Source: Cedecea selenatireducens (GTDB taxonomy: Bacteria > Pseudomonadota > Gammaproteobacteria > Enterobacterales > Enterobacteriaceae). From it: a DNA stretch of 40,000 bases. This document shows, in pieces, positions 9,971 through 37,743 of the stretch (its first letter is position 1; each line of letters opens with the position of its first letter). The translations under genes were made by a program, and so were the position numbers. Under the pieces are notes generated by a model that did no database searches, was not told where the DNA came from, and worked only from the letters and a program-made list of their open reading frames with translations. The DNA lies in assembly GCF_042138895.1 (NCBI RefSeq), contig NZ_JBHIKW010000013.1, positions 54,007 to 94,006 of the forward strand. Reading direction: 5' to 3'.

Positions 9971-12001
9971 ATGAAACGGTTCTCCCTCTGTCTTTTACTC
10001 ACGCCTTACCTCGCTTACGCAGGCTGGACCGCACCGGGACTTCCTGCTTTTCAGGAAACGGGTCCGGGCCAGTTCATCAGCACCGCTCATCTGGCCAAAG
10101 GCTCGCTGCCGCTTAATCTGAAGCTAGATAACCAATGCTGGCAGCCTGCAGAAACCATCAAGCTTAATCAGGCTCTTTCACTCAGGCCGTGCTCAGGCGA
10201 TGCGCCTGCGTGGCGACTTTTCCGAGCCGGAGAATACCAGGCACAGATAGATACCCGCAGCGGTACCCCCACGCTGATGCTCAGCATTAAGCCCGAGGCC
10301 AGCAGCCAGCCTCAACAGACGGTGGCGCAGTGCCCTAAATGGGATGGAAAGCCACTCACCGTCGACGTTAGCAGTACTTTCCCGGAAGGTTCACTGGTGC
10401 GTGATTTCTACAGCGGAGGCACGGCAAAAGTTGAGCAAGGCCATATCACGCTGATGCCTGCCGCCGGAAGCGACGGTTTATTGCTGCTGGAATCCGCAGC
10501 CGTAGAAAAACCAGCGCCGTTTAGCTGGCACAATGCGACGGTCTACTTCGTTCTGACCGATCGTTTTGAAAACGGCAACCCTGCAAACGATAGCAGCTAT
10601 GGCCGCCACAAAGACGGAATGCAGGAGATAGGCACCTTCCACGGAGGCGACCTCGCGGGGCTCACCAACAGGCTGGATTACCTGCAGCAGCTTGGTGTTA
10701 ACACGCTCTGGATAAGCTCCCCGCTGGAGCAAATTCACGGCTGGGTGGGCGGCGGCACCAAAGGCGACTTCCCACACTACGCCTACCACGGTTACTACAC
10801 CCTGGACTGGACGAAGCTTGACGCCAACATGGGTAACGAAGCCGAGCTCCGCAAACTGGTGGATGAAGCCCACAGGCGCGGGATCCGCATTCTGTTTGAC
10901 GTTGTCATGAACCACACAGGCTATGCGACGCTCGCCGACATGCAGGAGTACCAGTTTGGCGCGCTGTATCTCAAAGGGGATGAACTCAGGAAAACGCTCG
11001 ACGAGCGCTGGACTGACTGGCAGCCAGCGGCGGGCCAAAGCTGGCACAGCTTTAACGACTACATCAACTTTAGCGACAAAGCCGCGTGGGATAAGTGGTG
11101 GGGCAAGGCCTGGATCAGAACGGACATTGGCGATTACGACAACCCTGGCTTCGACGACTTAACTATGTCGCTCGCCTTCTTGCCCGATTTGAAAACCGAA
11201 GCGACCGCTCCGGCAGAACTCCCGATATTTTACCGGCACAAGCCCGATACCGCCGCGAAGGTGATACCTGGCTACACCGTTCGCGACTACCTGAGCCACT
11301 GGCTTAGCCAATGGGTACGTGACTATGGCATTGATGGTTTCAGGGTAGATACCGCAAAACACGTTGAAAAAGCGGCCTGGCAGCAATTAAAAACGCAGTC
11401 CAGCGCGGCATTAGCCGAATGGAAGCAGGCCAACCCGGACAAAAAAATCGATGATGCACCGTTCTGGATGACGGGCGAAGCCTGGGGCCACGGCGTGATG
11501 AAAAGCGATTACTACGCGAACGGCTTCGACGCGATGATCAACTTCGACTACCAGGAGCAGGCGGCCAAAGCGGTGGAATGCCTGGCCACGATTGCCCCTA
11601 CATGGCAACAAATGTCGGACAAACTCCAGCAATTTAACGTGCTGAGCTACCTGTCCTCCCACGACACCCGCCTGTTCCGGGAAGGCGGACAAAAAGCGGC
11701 GGAGCTGCTGTTGCTCACGCCAGGCGCGGTACAGATTTTCTACGGCGATGAAACGCAAAGACCATTTGGCCCAACGGGGTCTGACCCGCTGCAGGGCACC
11801 CGCTCGGACATGAACTGGCCGGACGCCACAAGCAAGCAGGCCGCAACGCTTGCTCACTGGCAGAAGCTGGGCCAGTTCCGCGCCCGCCATCAGGCCATCG
11901 GCGCAGGAAAACAAACGACGTTAAGCGTCAAACAGGGCTATGCCTTTAGCCGGGTCAGCGGCAATGACAAGGTGATGGTGGTGTGGGCGGGGAATCGATA
12001 G
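9971..12001 (+). CDS. malS: periplasmic alpha-amylase
   Basis: The ORF track starts at 9932. ATG 9971 gives MKRFSLCLLLTPYLAYA (signal peptide) and a 676-aa product, the same length as E. coli MalS. Collinear throughout (…FHGGDLRGLT…GFRVDTAKHVE…). Confidence 0.93.
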   Translation: MKRFSLCLLLTPYLAYAGWTAPGLPAFQETGPGQFISTAHLAKGSLPLNLKLDNQCWQPAETIKLNQALSLRPCSGDAPAWRLFRAGEYQAQIDTRSGTPTLMLSIKPEASSQPQQTVAQCPKWDGKPLTVDVSSTFPEGSLVRDFYSGGTAKVEQGHITLMPAAGSDGLLLLESAAVEKPAPFSWHNATVYFVLTDRFENGNPANDSSYGRHKDGMQEIGTFHGGDLAGLTNRLDYLQQLGVNTLWISSPLEQIHGWVGGGTKGDFPHYAYHGYYTLDWTKLDANMGNEAELRKLVDEAHRRGIRILFDVVMNHTGYATLADMQEYQFGALYLKGDELRKTLDERWTDWQPAAGQSWHSFNDYINFSDKAAWDKWWGKAWIRTDIGDYDNPGFDDLTMSLAFLPDLKTEATAPAELPIFYRHKPDTAAKVIPGYTVRDYLSHWLSQWVRDYGIDGFRVDTAKHVEKAAWQQLKTQSSAALAEWKQANPDKKIDDAPFWMTGEAWGHGVMKSDYYANGFDAMINFDYQEQAAKAVECLATIAPTWQQMSDKLQQFNVLSYLSSHDTRLFREGGQKAAELLLLTPGAVQIFYGDETQRPFGPTGSDPLQGTRSDMNWPDATSKQAATLAHWQKLGQFRARHQAIGAGKQTTLSVKQGYAFSRVSGNDKVMVVWAGNR

Positions 12002-12017
12002 TCGTCATATCGACTAT
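11998..12017 (+). terminator. weak hairpin overlapping the malS stop (possible terminator)
   Basis: ATAGTCG-tcatat-CGACTAT, a 7-bp AT-rich stem followed only by TT. A poor intrinsic terminator, so malS transcription may read into the downstream element. Confidence 0.25.
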
Positions 12018-12031
12018 TTAAGTTCGGCTAA

Positions 12032-12606
12032 GGTTCCGTTCACTTCCAGTTCGGTTTCATATGTCACCACCGAACCGGTGAACGACTCGGGGAAGTCACC
12101 GTCACTTCCCCGAGACCCCGGACTCCCGGCCAAATAAATCGACCGCTAAAGCGGCAGACCTCCGTTTTATCTCCCAGTCCTGGGTCGGCTGAGATGCGTT
12201 CCCGACGCTCTCAGCCTCCGGCCGTTCCCGACGTCCGGACCCTGGCCAGTCGGAGAGAAAACGGAGGCGATTTAAGCCGGAACCGTGCCTCGCTTTTTGT
12301 TCCCAGCCACGCTGAACATCCCTGTCGCTTCAAGACTTACAGCCACTCCCTTGTTCCCGGCTCTTATCGCCCCCGGTTATGACCCAACTCAGGCGGGGTT
12401 GAGCTGCCGGGAGCAGCGAAAGAGAGCGATCGTCGGGAACGAATCGGGAACGACCCCGAATGTTTGGGTGATAGCCGGTGGGTTTACCGCTTTAGCGGCG
12501 ATGAGCTCGCCGGGCGCCGGGGCTGTTCGGGGGATGGCGTTATCCCCCGGACACGTTCACCGTGCGCTGAAAGTGCAGGGGAAGCAGATCTCAAGGTGAA
12601 CGGAAC
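12032..12606. repeat. non-coding inverted-duplication element: two diverged, convergent copies of a ~190-nt hairpin-rich module flanking a ~185-bp unique core (candidate structured ncRNA or MITE/foldback element)
   Basis: GTTCCGTTCAC (12033-12043) is the exact reverse complement of 12596-12606. The arms align block by block: CGGTGAACG, an 11-bp hairpin, CCCCGG, CCCGGC, CCGC-TAAA-GCGG and tandem CGTTCCCGA. There is no credible ORF. See findings. Confidence 0.6.
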
Positions 12607-12798
12607 TTCATCCGTTTTCCCATAGAAAATATCATATGAGCCAGCATCAATGATGCCGCCGCCATTCAACATATCCTGCTACACAGCACGAATCCCACAG
12701 CATATTCGCCAACAGTGGCCAGGCTTACCGGGTTTGCACGGCGTTATTTGTAGCGCTATGGTTAGCCTCTTTTCAAAAGCATTCAGCAGACCCACGTT

Positions 12799-14052
12799 AT
12801 GACGTTTTCACTTTTCGGCGACAAATTTACCCGCCATGCAGGCATTACCCGCCTGATGGAGGATCTCAACGACGGCCTGCGCACGCCCGGCGCTATCATG
12901 CTTGGCGGCGGTAACCCTGCGCAAATCCCGGCGATGAACGACTACTTCCAGCAGCTGCTTTCCGAGATGCTGGCCAGCGGCAAACTGACCGACACGCTAT
13001 GCAACTACGACGGTCCGCAGGGGAAAAGTGAACTGCTAAAATTGCTTGCCGGAATGCTGCGCGATGAATTGGGTTGGGACATCGAACCACAGAATATTGC
13101 ACTAACAAATGGCAGTCAGAGCGCGTTTTTCTACTTGTTTAACCTTTTCGCCGGACGTCATGCGGATGGCCGCACCAAAAAGGTGCTTTTCCCGCTGGCG
13201 CCGGAGTACATCGGCTACGCGGATGCCGGGCTTGAAGAAGATCTGTTTGTCTCCACTCGCCCGAACATCGAACTGCTGCCGGAAGGCCAGTTTAAGTACC
13301 ACGTTGACTTCGAACATCTGCATATCGGCGAAGATACCGGCATGATTTGCGTATCACGCCCGACTAACCCGACCGGCAACGTGATAACCGATGAAGAGCT
13401 AATGAAGCTGGACGCGCTGGCCAACCAGCACGGTATTCCGCTGGTTATCGATAACGCTTACGGCGTACCGTTCCCCGGCATTATCTTTAGCGAAGCCCGC
13501 CCGCTGTGGAACCCGAACATCATCCTGTGCATGAGCCTGTCCAAGCTCGGCCTGCCGGGCAGCCGCTGCGGAATCATTATCGCGAACGAGAAAATCATCT
13601 CCGCGATCGGCAACATGAACGGCATTATCAGCCTGGCGCCGGGCGGGATTGGCCCGGCTATGGCCTGCGAAATGATTAAGCGTAACGATCTGCTGCGCCT
13701 GTCCGAGACGGTTATCAAGCCGTTCTACTACCAGCGCGTGCATGAAACTATCGCCGTTATTCGCCGCTACCTGTCGCCGGAGCGCTGCCTGATTCACAAA
13801 CCGGAAGGCGCTATCTTCCTGTGGCTGTGGTTTAAAGACCTGCCTATCACCACCGAACTGCTGTACCAGCGCCTGAAAAAGCGCGGCGTGCTGATGGTGC
13901 CGGGCGATTACTTCTTCCCAGGCCTGGATAAGCCGTGGCCGCACACTCACCAGTGCATGCGCATGAACTATGTGCCGGAGCCAGAAAAAATTGAGGCGGG
14001 GGTGAAAATCCTGGCCGAAGAGATTGAGCGAGCCTGGGCGGAAGCCGGGTAA
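12799..14052 (+). CDS. avtA: valine-pyruvate aminotransferase (transaminase C)
   Basis: 417 aa, the same length as E. coli AvtA and collinear with it. Follows malS as in E. coli. Confidence 0.95.
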   Translation: MTFSLFGDKFTRHAGITRLMEDLNDGLRTPGAIMLGGGNPAQIPAMNDYFQQLLSEMLASGKLTDTLCNYDGPQGKSELLKLLAGMLRDELGWDIEPQNIALTNGSQSAFFYLFNLFAGRHADGRTKKVLFPLAPEYIGYADAGLEEDLFVSTRPNIELLPEGQFKYHVDFEHLHIGEDTGMICVSRPTNPTGNVITDEELMKLDALANQHGIPLVIDNAYGVPFPGIIFSEARPLWNPNIILCMSLSKLGLPGSRCGIIIANEKIISAIGNMNGIISLAPGGIGPAMACEMIKRNDLLRLSETVIKPFYYQRVHETIAVIRRYLSPERCLIHKPEGAIFLWLWFKDLPITTELLYQRLKKRGVLMVPGDYFFPGLDKPWPHTHQCMRMNYVPEPEKIEAGVKILAEEIERAWAEAG

Positions 14053-15114: not shown

Positions 15115-17350
15115 CTTTTTTATCCTTGTGGTGATTCAAATAGCGGGCAGCGGCAACCACTGCCTGCCCCAGGGAAAGCGCCCCGTCGCCGGCCGGAAGC
15201 CGCATCGGGAAGAGAGTTTTAAAATCGGAGAGGTAGAACGCGAGACGCTCGCGCAGCAGACGGTTGTGCAGCACGCCGCCACAACAGGCCACGTTGGTTA
15301 CGCCGGTCAGCAACGCATGATGGCGAACCAGCTCAGCAAGCCCTTTCGCCAGCGCATCGTGGAAAGCCCAGGCCCGCGCGCCGTCCTCGACCTGCCAGCC
15401 AAACCACTGCCGCCAGAACGCCGCGAAATCGAGATGACCGTTCACCAACGGCAGCGTGACCGGATGCGAACAGGGGCCCGCCTCCAGCGCCAGCACCTCA
15501 AGGCGGCAGGCGGCTTCGCCTTCGTAGCTTTGCTGGTGGGGGGCACAGTTAAGCGCGGCGGCAACCGCATCAAACAGACGTCCGCAAGAAGAGGCCAACG
15601 GAGCGTTAACCCCGCGCGCTACGGCTCTAGCCAGCGGCTGCCAGTTCTGCGCCCTGATAGCTTCCGTTTCGGGATAGCGCTGCCAGCCGGGCACAAACGC
15701 CTCGCATTGCGCCAGCAGGTTGCGCCACGGCTGCACGGCCGCCAAATCGCCACCCGGTAGAGCCACGGCAGGCAGTCCGCCAAGGTGTACGCAGCGGCGG
15801 TAATTCACCAGCAGGCATTCCCCGCCCCAAAGCCTGCCGTCCTCGCCATAACCAATACCGTCCAGCGCGAGAGCAATCACCTTGCCGCCGTTCAGCGGCC
15901 AGCCGTGTTCGGCCAGGCAGGCCGCCGCGTGGGCGTGGTGATGCAGCACTTCGCTGACCGGCAGCGCCATTTCACGCCCCAGCTGCGAGCTGCAGTAGCC
16001 GGGGTGAGCGTCGAGCGCGACATGTTCAGCTGTAAAGCCGTAGATCTCGCTCATCAGCGCCAGCGAACGCTGCCATTGAGCCTCCACGCCTTCCTGAGCC
16101 AGATCGCCAAGGTGCTGGCTGAGCACCGCCTGCCCGCCGCGAACCAGGCAGAAGGTATTTTTAAGATCGCCGCCCAGCGCCAGAATCGGCGGCAGGTCTT
16201 TAAAACCCGCAGGCAAAGGCAGTGCATCGGGCACAAAGCCCCGTGCACGACGCAGCATTTCGCCGCTGGGGCGCACAACGGAGTCGTCCATGCGCTGAAG
16301 AATGTCGCGGTTATGCAGCAGAAAGCCGTCGGCAATAGCCTCAAGATCCTGAAGAGCCCGGGCATTATCAACAGCTGGCGGTCTGCCGTTCAGGTTTCCG
16401 GAGGTCATCACCAGCGGGCCGCCGAAGTCCTGCGCCAGCAGGTGCTGGAGGGGATTGGCGGGCAACATCACGCCGATTTCATTCCGCCCCGGCGCCACGG
16501 CAGCGCTCAGCCCATGCAGGCAGTTGCTTGCCACCAGCACTACCGGCGCAGCGGGAGTTGAAAGCAGCGCCACGGCCTGCTCGGGCAGCCCTTCGGTCGT
16601 GGCAATCATCACCGCCAGCGGTTTGGCAGGCCGCTGCTTACGCGCCCGGAGGCGTTCAACGGCGGCATCGTTACGGGCATCCACGGCAAGATGAAAACCG
16701 CCGAGGCCTTTCACCGCAACGATTTTGCCCTCGTGCAGCGCGGCAACGGCCTGTGCAAGCGCCAGCTCGCCCTCGAGTCGTTGCTCTCCCTGCTGCCAGA
16801 AAATCTGCGGCCCGCAGTCCGGGCAGGCTACCGGCTGAGCGTGAAAACGCCTGTCCATCGGGTTGCGATATTCCTCATCGCAAGCCTTACAGAGCGGAAA
16901 CGCCGCCATCACCGTGGACGGACGGTCATAAGGCATCGCGCGGATGATGGTGAAGCGCGGCCCACAGTGGGTGCAATTGATAAACGGGTAGCGGTATCTG
17001 CGGTCGGCGGGATCGTTCAGCTCACGCAGGCATTCGGGGCAGGTGGCGGCATCCGGCACGATTTGGGTGTCCATCGCGCCGCTGCCGCTGTGGCGAATGC
17101 TAAAGTCCGCAGGCAAAACGTCCCAGGTCATGGGCTGCTGCACCACGCTGTCGATGCGAGCCAGCGGCGGGCAATGTGCGTAAAGCTCGGCCAGAAACAC
17201 TTCCGGGCTGGCCGCCAGGCGAACCACAACACCTTCGCCGTCGTTGCAGACGTCGCCCACCAGCTTAAGGCGCTGTGCGATTTGCCAGACAAACGGCCGA
17301 AAGCCAACGCCCTGCACTTTGCCGCGAATGCGGAGTACGGTGCCCCTCAC
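15092..17350 (-). CDS. hypF: [NiFe]-hydrogenase maturation carbamoyltransferase
   Basis: Collinear with E. coli HypF: acylphosphatase-like [17 protein letters not shown], two CxxC zinc-finger pairs, and YrdC- and Kae1-like domains. The 799-aa track ORF (to 17491) begins inside REP-like repeats. I place the start at GTG 17350 (GGAGAGGG upstream), giving 752 aa against 750 in E. coli. The exact start is uncertain. Confidence 0.88.
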
Positions 17351-17482
17351 CCTAACCCTCTCCCCATAGGGGCGAGGGGACAGATCGAGTTCAACCACAG
17401 CTTCTCCCACTTCTGAACGAGGAGAGACATCAGACTCAGATCTTCCCCCTCTCCCTTCCAGGGAGAGGGCCGGGGTGAGGGT
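17343..17482. repeat. REP/REPIN-like doublet A (two inverted palindromic units)
   Basis: Unit 17343-17379 is CCCCTCACCCTAACCCTCTCCCCATAGGGGCGAGGGG. Unit 17445-17482 is the same motif in inverted orientation (CCCCCTCTCCCTTCCAGGGAGAGGGCCGGGGTGAGGGT). The same family recurs at 22590, 28490 and 37652. Confidence 0.8.
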
Positions 17483-17487
17483 AAAAA

Positions 17488-22555: not shown

Positions 22556-22589
22556 GCGTTTTCCTTGTTTGCCTGGTCTTAGTGATTGA

Positions 22590-22683
22590 CCCTCTCCCCG
22601 GCCCTCTCCCTGGAAGGGAGAGGGGGGAAAGCTAGCTCGATCCAGTTCCCTCTCCCCTTTGGGGAGAGGGTTAGGGTGAGGGG
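22590..22683. repeat. REP/REPIN-like doublet B inside the hyc operon (hycE-hycF spacer)
   Basis: Units at 22590-22627 (CCCTCTCCCCGGCCCTCTCCCTGGAAGGGAGAGGGGGG) and 22648-22683 (CCCTCTCCCCTTTGGGGAGAGGGTTAGGGTGAGGGG), in inverted orientation. Confidence 0.8.
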
Positions 22684-22710
22684 CTGCTCATCACCGACCA
22701 GACATCAAAA

Positions 22711-28478: not shown

Positions 28479-28489
28479 GGATTTTTTTA

Positions 28490-28637
28490 CCCTCACCCTA
28501 ACCCTCTCCCTGGGAGGGAGAGGGAATAAAAAGCAGGGCTGGAGAACCCTCTCCCTGCAAGGGTGAGGGGATAAATCATTCCCTTTCCTTTAAAGAATTC
28601 TCCCTCGCCCCTTCGGGGAGAGGGCCGGGGTGAGGGG
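28490..28637. repeat. REP/REPIN-like cluster C (three units) in the hyc-hyp control region
   Basis: Three units: 28490-28524 (CCCTCACCCTAACCCTCTCCCTGGGAGGGAGAGGG), 28547-28570 (CCCTCTCCCTGCAAGGGTGAGGGG, short form) and 28600-28637 (inverted: CTCCCTCGCCCCTTCGGGGAGAGGGCCGGGGTGAGGGG). Confidence 0.8.
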
Positions 28638-28649
28638 CAAAAAAAGGCC

Positions 28650-36970: not shown

Positions 36971-37648
36971 ATGCACCGCTATCCGCTTCAGGTTTACGCT
37001 GGCCAGATTCGTGATTACGAAGGGAGCCGGCCCAGCGCCATCGCCAAGGTTCAGGTGGACGGCGAGCTTCGCTTAACCGAGACTGGGCTTGAGGGCGATC
37101 AACAGGCGGAGAAGGTGATTCACGGCGGGCCAGACAGGGCGCTGTGCCACTATCCGCGCGAGCATTATCAGCATTGGGCGCAAATCTTCCCGGATAAGGC
37201 GGATCTGTTTAATGCCCCGGCCTTCGGCGAAAACCTGTCTACGCAAGGGATGACGGAAAAGAACGTCTATATGGGCGATATTTACCGCTGGGGTGAGGCG
37301 CTGATTCAGGTGACCCAGCCTCGCTCGCCGTGCTTTAAGCTTAACTACCATTTTGGCGTAGAGGATATGGCGGCACGGATGCAGGAAGCAGGCTACTGCG
37401 GCTGGCTTTATCGCGTGATTCTGGCGGGGAGCGTTTCTGCCGATGCGCCGCTGGAGCTGGTTTCACGCGTTAGCGACGTGACGGTGGCAGAAGCTATCGC
37501 CATTGCCTGGCATATGCCGTTTGATGATTCGCAATATCATCGGCTTTTGTCGGCGGCTGGGTTGTCGGTGAGCTGGAGCAGAACGATGCAGAAAAGGCGT
37601 ATTTCAAGAAAGATAGAGGATAATTCGCGGCGTTTGCTCGGGAAGTAA
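36971..37648 (+). CDS. yiiM: MOSC-domain protein (6-N-hydroxylaminopurine resistance, YiiM-like)
   Basis: ATG 36971 gives MHRYPLQVYAGQI…. Collinear with E. coli YiiM (…KVIHGGPDRALCHYPREHY…QPRSPCFKLNYHF…). Confidence 0.88.
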   Translation: MHRYPLQVYAGQIRDYEGSRPSAIAKVQVDGELRLTETGLEGDQQAEKVIHGGPDRALCHYPREHYQHWAQIFPDKADLFNAPAFGENLSTQGMTEKNVYMGDIYRWGEALIQVTQPRSPCFKLNYHFGVEDMAARMQEAGYCGWLYRVILAGSVSADAPLELVSRVSDVTVAEAIAIAWHMPFDDSQYHRLLSAAGLSVSWSRTMQKRRISRKIEDNSRRLLGK

Positions 37649-37651
37649 CTG

Positions 37652-37731
37652 CCCCTCACCCCAGCCCTCTCCCCAAAGGGGCGAGGGAGAAAAAAGATGT
37701 GCCGGCCCTCTCCCCAAAGGGGAGAGGGGGG
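37652..37731. repeat. REP-like cluster D (two units, same orientation) between convergent yiiM and phoU
   Basis: 37652-37687 is CCCCTCACCCCAGCCCTCTCCCCAAAGGGGCGAGGG. 37702-37731 is CCGGCCCTCTCCCCAAAGGGGAGAGGGGGG. Confidence 0.8.
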
Positions 37732-37743
37732 AAAGAAGTGCAC

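Follow-up and report, generated by a model that had tools for sequence, protein, structure and literature searches.

We analysed a 40,000-nt stretch of Cedecea selenatireducens DNA (contig NZ_JBHIKW010000013.1, positions 54,007 to 94,006; hereafter the window), in which the malS open reading frame (ORF) ends at 12001 and avtA starts at 12799, leaving an intergenic gap of 797 nt. The segment from about 12033 to 12606, together with weaker outer segments that extend it to about 11999-12640, is in our judgement a member of a multi-copy family of GC-rich, non-coding chromosomal repeats of Enterobacteriaceae, which includes the TRIP1 repeats, a reading to which we assign a probability of roughly 0.7. 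Judging from sequence comparison, the element is best described as a probable dimeric form of this known family. TRIP1 repeats, known since 1999, have been described only in E. coli, as single units at five loci (PMC10888264); they are 146-273 bp long with 62-65% GC, adopt a 'double-Y' fold, lie 38-96 bp downstream of stop codons and are of unclear role (Rudd 1999; Li et al. 2024, PMC10888264). The latter paper makes no mention of other genera, Rfam or CsrA.

The two ends of the element carry the 11-mer GTTCCGTTCAC in exact inverted orientation, as the preliminary description had noted, and these are the only two exact copies in the 40 kb. Scanning metagenome and genome collections with the seed pattern GTTCCGTTCAC-N30-38-CGGTGAACG, which has 20 specified bases, returned at least 120 metagenome loci and at least 117 genome loci, with about 12 and nine chance matches, respectively, the latter falling outside the Enterobacterales as expected for 20 bases. 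The sampling was thus seeded by one conserved motif, and the resulting counts are a minimum taken from the matches listed. Among these matches, the hosts are Cedecea neteri, C. davisae, Buttiauxella, Leclercia, Kluyvera, Enterobacter, Kosakonia, Lelliottia, Pluralibacter, Silvania, Scandinavium, Mangrovibacter, Siccibacter, Yokenella, Citrobacter amalonaticus, Klebsiella indica, E. coli, E. albertii and Rosenbergiella, with at least 5-11 loci per genome (at least seven in C. neteri and at least 11 in strain RIT693); module copies number about 5-20 per genome. The question of copy number in relatives, which had been posed for this element, is therefore answered by a multi-copy distribution over many genera of Enterobacteriaceae. 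A literature string search for the terminal motif returned unrelated primers only.

An iterated nhmmer profile of the family identified 345 modules in 254 loci. Among these module matches, 80 pairs are oriented heads outward (+-) with a total length of 530-720 nt, while four are -+, six ++ and eight --, so the copy in the window has the commonest arrangement of the family. Modules also occur alone, in tandem and as an alternating array of five, and 159 of the 345 have no second module within 400 nt, some of them only because the fetched locus ends. A second full dimer (L089), from the same sample as a contig carrying this exact locus, is 90% identical to the element over 581 nt, including both arms and the spacer, and a solo L-type module lies 12.8 kb upstream of the malS-avtA element, just outside the window. 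The family expands within lineages: for 63 of 73 modules the best match lies in the same genome, versus about 5.7 by chance. The array of five alternating modules (- + - + -), found in Cedecea davisae (L159, 2617-3784), recalls clusters of bacterial interspersed mosaic elements (BIMEs), and about 700 nt separate the second full element copy from a RyhB gene (L089, 114-179; 86 bits).

The family profile scores both arms of the window element as full modules, one on the + strand (12012-12334, E=3e-53) and one on the - strand (12625-12301, E=4e-53), and in a self-blastn comparison 12025-12210(+) and 12614-12428(-) share 66.8% identity over 193 nt (E=0.008); the inverted similarity of the termini reaches 34 nt at 74%. 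The element thus consists of two homologous, diverged modules of about 250 nt, an L type and an R type, placed tail to tail with their heads outward. All the blocks of the arm symmetry described previously were found, including CGGTGAACG, the 11-bp hairpins, CCGC-TAAA-GCGG and the CGTTCCCGA pairs. However, the arms had been given as about 190-210 nt, short of the 250 nt of the homologous modules, and the motifs regarded as tandem CGTTCCCGA copies, while present, have another meaning: the left-arm pair represents the loops of two separate hairpins, and the second right-arm copy arises from one substitution in a hairpin stem (G12447 versus the family consensus C). Within each module the P1 base CGTTCAC/GTGAACG comes after the terminal motif, and a long-range stem (CCGGC..TAAATCG with CGATTTA..GCCGG) closes a pair of hairpins. 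The predicted fold energies are -121 and -108 kcal/mol for the two modules, with z-scores against shuffled sequences of -6.7 for the left module and -3.0 and -5.4 for the two strands of the right one. Family-conserved sequence runs about 35-45 nt past both 11-mers, to about 11999 and 12640, and the left outer segment, which is kept in the Buttiauxella ortholog, aligns weakly to the L-type outer flank of the family, CTTAGTCACAAATACC.ACGATTATGCAGGGCCGGCTAAG. Hence the full element, by comparison with its relatives, probably spans about 11999-12640 and abuts the malS stop codon.

The relationship to TRIP1 was recognised through E. coli, in which a copy carrying the terminal motif lies between asmA and yegH (L131, 2552-2830). 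A blastn search with this copy matches the aqpZ-lysO, putP-efeU and alx-sstT loci, that is, TRIP1a, TRIP1b and TRIP1d, at 78-85% identity. Moreover, an nhmmer profile of 22 window-type modules containing no E. coli sequence recovered TRIP1b (E=1e-5), TRIP1d (1.4e-4) and TRIP1a (1.7e-3) in a 2-Mb search, each in its expected position and strand, and scored the asmA-yegH and mmuM-tauA copies at E=1e-16 and E=4e-19, respectively. Direct blastn of the window's spacer found nothing in 5426 E. coli genomes, so the kinship with TRIP1, real by these profile matches, must be distant. The asmA-yegH and mmuM-tauA copies (the latter in L132, 1976-2273) are family members beyond the five published TRIP1 loci; the former covers at least 80% of the 286-nt query in 1932 of the 5426 genomes, with internal-deletion variants elsewhere, and the copy or arrangement at mmuM-tauA is found in only 18 E. 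coli genomes.

The preliminary description had proposed that structure is conserved in this element while sequence drifts, taking the two 11-bp hairpins as its example. We assessed this with RNAalifold on an alignment of 22 window-type modules that includes both arms of the window (A4), and with a second alignment of 71 diverse arms (A3). A4 supports 54 pairs in eight helices, 24 of which show double changes; 95.6% of its cells are paired versus 83.6% in shuffled alignments, none of 500 shuffles being as high, double-change cells number 149 versus 42 in shuffles, and slid-partner controls are only 27-42% paired. The 11-bp hairpin (P2) is the most strongly covarying helix of the family, with compensatory double changes at 9 of its 11 pairs in A4 and in 14-34 of the 71 sequences of A3. 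Of the long-range helices 4 and 5, 4/7 and 4/5 pairs covary, respectively; the covarying stems of helices 3-5 enclose helices 7 and 8, so that each module folds as a unit of its own. The stem of the mini-hairpin P3 varies in the family alignment as CCGC/GCGG, GTGC/GCAC, TCGC/GCGA and TTGC/GCAA. P1 (helix 1) is constrained in sequence as well: 6 of its 8 pairs never vary in A4, and TTCCGTTCAC is invariant or nearly so in the 71 diverse arms, where the P1 base never varies. Such compensatory changes indicate that the folded shape is under selection, and the covariation among homologues that had been called for exists. Stem mismatches comprise four G:T and four A:C in about 930 pairs, with no strand asymmetry; we accordingly rejected G:U versus A:C asymmetry as an indicator of the functional strand, and the near-pure Watson-Crick compensation decides neither that strand nor between RNA and DNA. 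Also rejected was a small leader-like ORF running through P1 (ATG about 19 nt upstream, FRS...R*), since the spacing of 32-34 nt breaks the frame, the ATG is absent in the left arm of the window, and the variation takes the form of base-pair covariation instead. The features of the element are listed in Table 1.

Table 1. Coordinates of the element between malS and avtA (window numbering; helices are those of the predicted fold).
Feature	Position	Strand	Remark
Left module (L type)	12033 to ~12283	+	Homologous module
Outer segment, L-type head	11999..12032	+	Overlaps malS stop TAG and the ATAGTCG-TCATAT-CGACTAT hairpin
Left terminal motif GTTCCGTTCAC	12033..12043	+	Exact inverted copy of 12596-12606
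P1 hairpin, left	12037..12084	+	Base CGTTCACT/GGTGAACG invariant; inner stem GTTCGGT/ACCGAAC variable
P2 GC-rich 11-bp hairpin, left	12086..12114	+	CTCGGGGAAGT...ACTTCCCCGAG
Stem-closed domain, left	12126..12280	+	Closing stem 12126-12130 + 12135-12141 with 12268-12274 + 12276-12280
Inner stem, left stem-closed domain	12159-12174 with 12252-12267	+	Predicted fold
P3 mini-hairpin CCGC-TAAA-GCGG, left	12143..12154	+	
Y-hairpin A, left	12187..12216	+	Loop TTCCCGA at 12199-12205 (helix 7)
Y-hairpin B, left	12217..12239	+	Loop TTCCCGA at 12225-12231, 26 nt past loop A (helix 8)
Spacer between module tails, 72 nt	12284..12355	.	Between the two closing stems; no promoter-like site
Right module (R type)	12356..12606	-	Coordinates of parts given on + strand
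P1 hairpin, right	12554-12602	-	
P2 hairpin, right	12524-12553	-	
P3 mini-hairpin, right	12487-12498	-	
Closing stem, right	12497-12514 with 12356-12371	-	
Y-hairpin A, right	12426-12452	-	
Y-hairpin B, right	12403-12417	-	
Right terminal motif	12596-12606	-	
Strain-variable 11-nt segment TCGGGAACGAA	12433..12443	.	Loss destroys right-module Y-hairpin A
Outer segment, R-type head	12607..12640	-	Weak similarity to R-type outer flank GATATCTTTCGCTCCGCAGTT; partly kept in Buttiauxella ortholog

The placement of the family is equally characteristic. Convergent genes flank 69 (59%) of 116 distinct elements, tandem genes 39 (34%) and divergent genes only eight (7%), and the median distance is 82 nt to a facing stop codon versus 236 nt to facing gene starts. 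The family strongly prefers sites just downstream of gene 3' ends. L-type heads are often found 59-69 nt from a stop codon, a distance that hardly accommodates a terminator, and co-transcription of such modules with the upstream gene therefore seems likely. That the element is in fact co-transcribed into the 3' untranslated region of its neighbour, here malS, may be offered as a tentative suggestion.

The two hairpins of the Y domain, wherever they were detected, carry loops with a TCC core (GGA on the other strand), and the two loops keep a constant spacing of 26-28 nt throughout the family. The loops come in two dialects, namely caTCC(A/C)tg (CATCC(A/C)TG), the E. coli type, which reads CAUGGAUG on the other strand, and gtTCCCGac, which reads GUCGGGAAC there and is the one used in the window. 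The loop TTCCCGA of the window subfamily corresponds to YCGGGAR on the GGA strand, where the loops of the window itself read UCGGGAA or CCGGGAG. At least two CANGGANG or YCGGGAR motifs at a distance of 26-28 nt occur on the GGA strand in 51 of the 71 modules, and 49 of the 71 have at least one CANGGANG. Loops of the first dialect (CAUGGAUG) are close to the consensus RUACARGGAUGU obtained for CsrA by systematic evolution of ligands by exponential enrichment (SELEX), a string confirmed in the literature. Binding of CsrA to the GGA strand of E. coli-type members is thus a concrete hypothesis suggested by this resemblance, while for the loop dialect of the window such binding appears doubtful.

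A number of results weigh against assigning the window element to a selected repeat family related to TRIP1, or limit what that assignment implies. No Rfam family, TwoAYGGAY included, was matched by the window (E<=1) or by the element alone (E<=10). The assertion that the element has no catalogued relative consequently stands as far as Rfam is concerned, but not in view of its distant relative TRIP1 and of the TwoAYGGAY-like architecture on the opposite strand. The sequences of A4 are related, so their double-change cells are not independent events, and the invariance of P1 is partly circular because the seeds were chosen by the terminal motif. The loops of the window (UCGGGAAC) match the CsrA consensus only at GGA. 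Solo modules show a weak orientation bias relative to the upstream gene (12 sense, five antisense) that is not significant, and no match to the element was found in plasmid and phage collections. The right module of this copy has a stem-breaking substitution and a strain-polymorphic 11-nt deletion, which argue against strong selection on this particular copy; by this sequence evidence, the module is decaying. The 11-nt segment concerned (TCGGGAACGAA) is absent in strain loci L001, L003, L005 and L007, and present in others with identical AvtA. Furthermore, the flanks of 52 dimers, which are inverted or family-conserved instead, contain no direct repeat that would mark a target-site duplication, although their ends are uncertain by about 40 nt, so that a short duplication farther out is possible, and about 2 Mb of flanks at the 254 loci contain no transposase between or beside the heads, only unrelated IS3-like and IS481-like insertions.

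An insertion between malS and avtA, as claimed previously, agrees with the length of this spacer in other lineages: it is 177 nt in E. coli, 174 nt in K. michiganensis, 183 nt in a Buttiauxella metagenome-assembled genome (whose AvtA is 93% identical), and 218 and 221 nt in two further lineages of Enterobacteriaceae, versus 797 nt here. None of these five spacers contains a module, and the element is thus either derived in the Cedecea lineage or lost elsewhere. In an excision test, removing exactly 12033-12606 gave the best alignment to the Buttiauxella spacer, which keeps the flanks as a small palindrome, GTCGGATAAG-CGAAGCG-TCATCCGAC; this palindrome may be what a deletion left behind, not an empty target. 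We rejected the idea that the flanks are halves of an independent target of the repetitive extragenic palindromic (REP) type, since about 2 Mb of sequence contain no solo palindromes of that type and the flanks are family-conserved for 35-45 nt, in L-type as well as R-type heads. In E. coli, the alx-sstT spacer has three alleles, which contain TRIP1d, a 224-nt segment with REP-like repeats, or a 147-nt segment (L134, 1688-2302, versus L254 and L255); it was rejected as a clean filled/empty site because it represents a segment replacement with no clean junction. The element-free lineages have a hairpin GGCT(T/C)CCC..GGG(A/G)AGCC after malS (L136, ~1195-1235; L262, ~1335-1365; L264 and L265, ~1285-1310), and the E. 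coli version, GGCTTCCCGTTCG, resembles the element terminus and the loop motif (TTCCCG), probably by coincidence.

Among the alternatives, the one that survives best is a miniature inverted-repeat transposable element (MITE), in which a transposase encoded elsewhere would recognise the GTTCCGTTCAC termini and move the 574-nt unit by cut and paste. The exact 11-bp termini within 34 nt of inverted similarity, the invariance of the terminal motif, as expected of a protein-recognition site, the copying of the dimer as a unit in L089, the multi-copy expansion within lineages, the absence from orthologous spacers and the excision optimum at exactly 12033-12606 would all fit this model. We nevertheless consider it unlikely. 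Besides the lack of direct repeats at the 52 dimers, with flanks conserved for a further 35-45 nt, no gene-bearing element was found among the 254 loci, their ~1.3-kb gaps being unrelated insertion sequences (ISs); nearly half of the modules are unpaired within 400 nt, and others stand in tandem or alternating arrays; identity between the arms is only 67%, with L and R types staying distinct across genera; and the polymorphic TRIP1d site of E. coli is no clean insertion. Of the three identities that the preliminary description had proposed, the closest is two convergent copies of a repeat module; modules also stand alone, in tandem and in an array of five. For the MITE or foldback element, neither a target-site duplication nor an autonomous partner was found at these loci. 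Family members split by ~1.3-kb ISs are found at L129 (6556-7811, IS3-like orfAB), L100 (179-1479, IS481-like), L041 (2523-3889), L045 (7285-8652), L153 (393-1756) and L094 (~2835); in L094 and L100 the insertion lies in the P2 loop after CTCGCC|G, suggesting that the hairpins serve as IS targets.

A second alternative, improbable in our estimation, treats the modules as stand-alone genes for small RNAs (sRNAs) of the TwoAYGGAY class, whose GGA strand would be transcribed from the spacer outward, giving an RNA that titrates CsrA by means of two GGA loops. TwoAYGGAY, known as a candidate RNA in gut metagenomes, gamma-proteobacteria and Clostridiales (Weinberg et al. 2010, PMC2864571), is a predicted CsrA binder (PMC4333381); it is placed with RsmW in Rfam clan CL00106, and it is multi-copy in Psychromonas, with several copies in the published alignment. 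TRIP1d and TRIP1a match its model (RF01731) end to end on the strand opposite to the module sense, with 36.6 and 30.6 bits (E=2.5e-4 in a local search). In addition, many family loops read ACAUGGAUGU on the GGA strand, near the SELEX consensus, and the loop spacing of 26-28 nt is fixed. However, all these scores are below the 43-bit gathering threshold, and the window and L028 give no match; the window loops are of the UCGGGAAC kind. A consensus scan of 11900-12900 found no promoter-like (sigma-70-like) site, and the sole terminator-like site inside the element is the short 5-bp P3 stem on the - strand. G:U pairs are as rare as A:C, which is unusual for an RNA selected on one strand, and 5-20 copies per genome with indel decay are unlike Csr/Rsm sRNA genes. 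Rfam searches of eight family loci and the E. coli TRIP1 loci returned nothing that reaches threshold, the weak matches to VA, Scr4115 and anti-hemB being rejected as noise; the flanks of family loci contain matches to REP (naRNA4) and RyhB. A near-threshold match to Aggregatibacter sRNA 22 (36.9 versus 39.8 bits) lies inside one family member on the strand opposite to the module sense (L014, 1533-1628).

A single structured non-coding RNA of about 0.6 kb spanning both arms, another of the identities proposed at the outset, is very improbable. The whole element does fold far more stably than shuffled sequences (-296 kcal/mol, z=-10.2), with its termini paired in that fold. The covariation, however, supports stems within each module, the long-range ones closing the modules separately; modules exist alone, in tandem and in the array of five; arms that are 67% identical make a poor duplex; and in most copies the two outer flanks are non-complementary (2-18 of 22 positions). 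Finally, a neutral spacer or the remnant of a protein gene, which could appeal only to a 104-aa hypothetical ORF annotated at the position of the element in GenBank CP009451, is effectively refuted by the absence of any Pfam match and by a conserved multi-copy family with base-pair covariation.

The earlier conclusion that the gap holds no credible ORF is retained, as its ORFs of 40-104 aa have no Pfam match (best E=0.24), and 12033-12606 is non-coding. The GC content of the element is 60.7%, versus 57.6% for the window. An exact copy of the AvtA protein of the window is encoded on GenBank CP009451.1, which we take to be Cedecea neteri, and on several JGI contigs. A 7-bp hairpin, ATAGTCG-TCATAT-CGACTAT (11998-12020), encloses the stop codon of malS (TAG, 11999-12001) and is followed by TTT; it represents either the outer end of the element in diverged form or a weak terminator-like site. 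The strain alignment also has a C/A polymorphism at 12203, within the first Y loop. In an ENA metagenome contig (L007, 1-2250), a flank with a LytTR response regulator and a histidine kinase is joined at CTAAG|GTTCC, the exact element end, and the left arm is a different variant; this is either a second copy beside the LytTR and histidine kinase genes or a chimeric assembly across the repeat. Other signs of a repeat at the locus are one assembly with an N-gap inside the element and one contig that begins inside it. The family disrupts assemblies and can yield chimeric contigs, as at this locus. Elsewhere in the window, palindromes of the host REP type, CCCTCTCCC-n4-GGGAGAGGG followed by (TTA/CCG)GGGTGAGGGG, form clusters in both orientations at 17341-17487, 22586-22703, 28484-28642 and 37632-37735; they bear no relation to the element.

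If the element is a dimeric member of the TRIP1-containing family, each module would fold as a single strand of RNA or DNA into a terminal hairpin, a GC hairpin and a stem-closed Y with twin loops, presenting the P1 base and the twin loops as invariant features for recognition. It would be tolerated, or useful, only behind genes. Behaviour of the REP/BIME type, that is, non-autonomous duplication tolerated only behind genes, is possible on this evidence, but we would not bet on it. Much the same holds for the idea that the identical twin loops may form a paired site for a dimeric factor, which could be CsrA acting on the GGA strand of members with CAUGGAUG loops. A broader and more doubtful proposal is that TRIP1, TwoAYGGAY and these dimers constitute one widespread class of selfish structured elements that plant a paired site for a dimeric RNA- or ssDNA-binding protein (CsrA in the CAUGGAUG dialect) behind genes. 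If so, each of two converging transcripts would receive from a heads-out pair a module in the same orientation, and the elements would serve as a decoy pool or as a dispersed and evolvable layer of control at the post-transcriptional level. The alternative to this proposal would be a giant REPIN-like element moved by a hairpin-recognising enzyme.

The assignment makes the TRIP1 repeats, previously treated as E. coli-specific single units, part of a far larger family found in many genera. This family conserves a multi-helix architecture, favours the mirror-image pairing and strongly prefers gene 3' ends, and the invariant base of its terminal hairpin and the twin loops look like recognition sites. 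Together, the sub-threshold TwoAYGGAY match and the likeness of the E. coli-type loops to high-affinity CsrA ligands provide a testable hypothesis for an old repeat.

Compared with known systems, the element resembles TRIP1 in being GC-rich and non-coding, with a unit of about 250 nt and a very stable 'double-Y' fold, and in lying tens of nucleotides downstream of a stop codon (its core begins 31 nt after that of malS) in few copies per genome. However, TRIP1 repeats are single units, whereas the element is an inverted pair of diverged modules with a 574-nt core; it has an extra invariant terminal hairpin (GTTCCGTTCAC...GTGAACG), a sequence that TRIP1a is without, and its loop is TTCCCGA rather than CATCCATG. 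With TwoAYGGAY the modules share a closing stem, sometimes very long, around two adjacent hairpins with identical GGA loops. They differ in that their loops read YCGGGAR instead of AYGGAY, although other family members do carry CAUGGAUG, and in that the TwoAYGGAY model comprises the Y domain only, without P1, P2, P3 or the dimer; no family member tested reaches its gathering score.

REP, BIME and REPIN sequences are likewise extragenic palindromic repeats behind gene 3' ends, often in alternating orientation, with near-pure Watson-Crick compensation and a role as IS insertion sites, and family members often adjoin REPs. Yet the element, with its multi-helix unit of about 250 nt, is about 10 times larger than the ~35-nt palindrome unit of a REP, and has no similarity to the REP type of its own host (CCCTCTCCC..GGGAGAGGG). 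With MITEs such as ERIC/IRU it has in common that it is a short, non-coding, multi-copy sequence with inverted termini in the intergenic regions of Enterobacteriaceae; unlike them, it showed no target-site duplication or cognate IS, and its halves are diverged paralogous modules, not a simple foldback.

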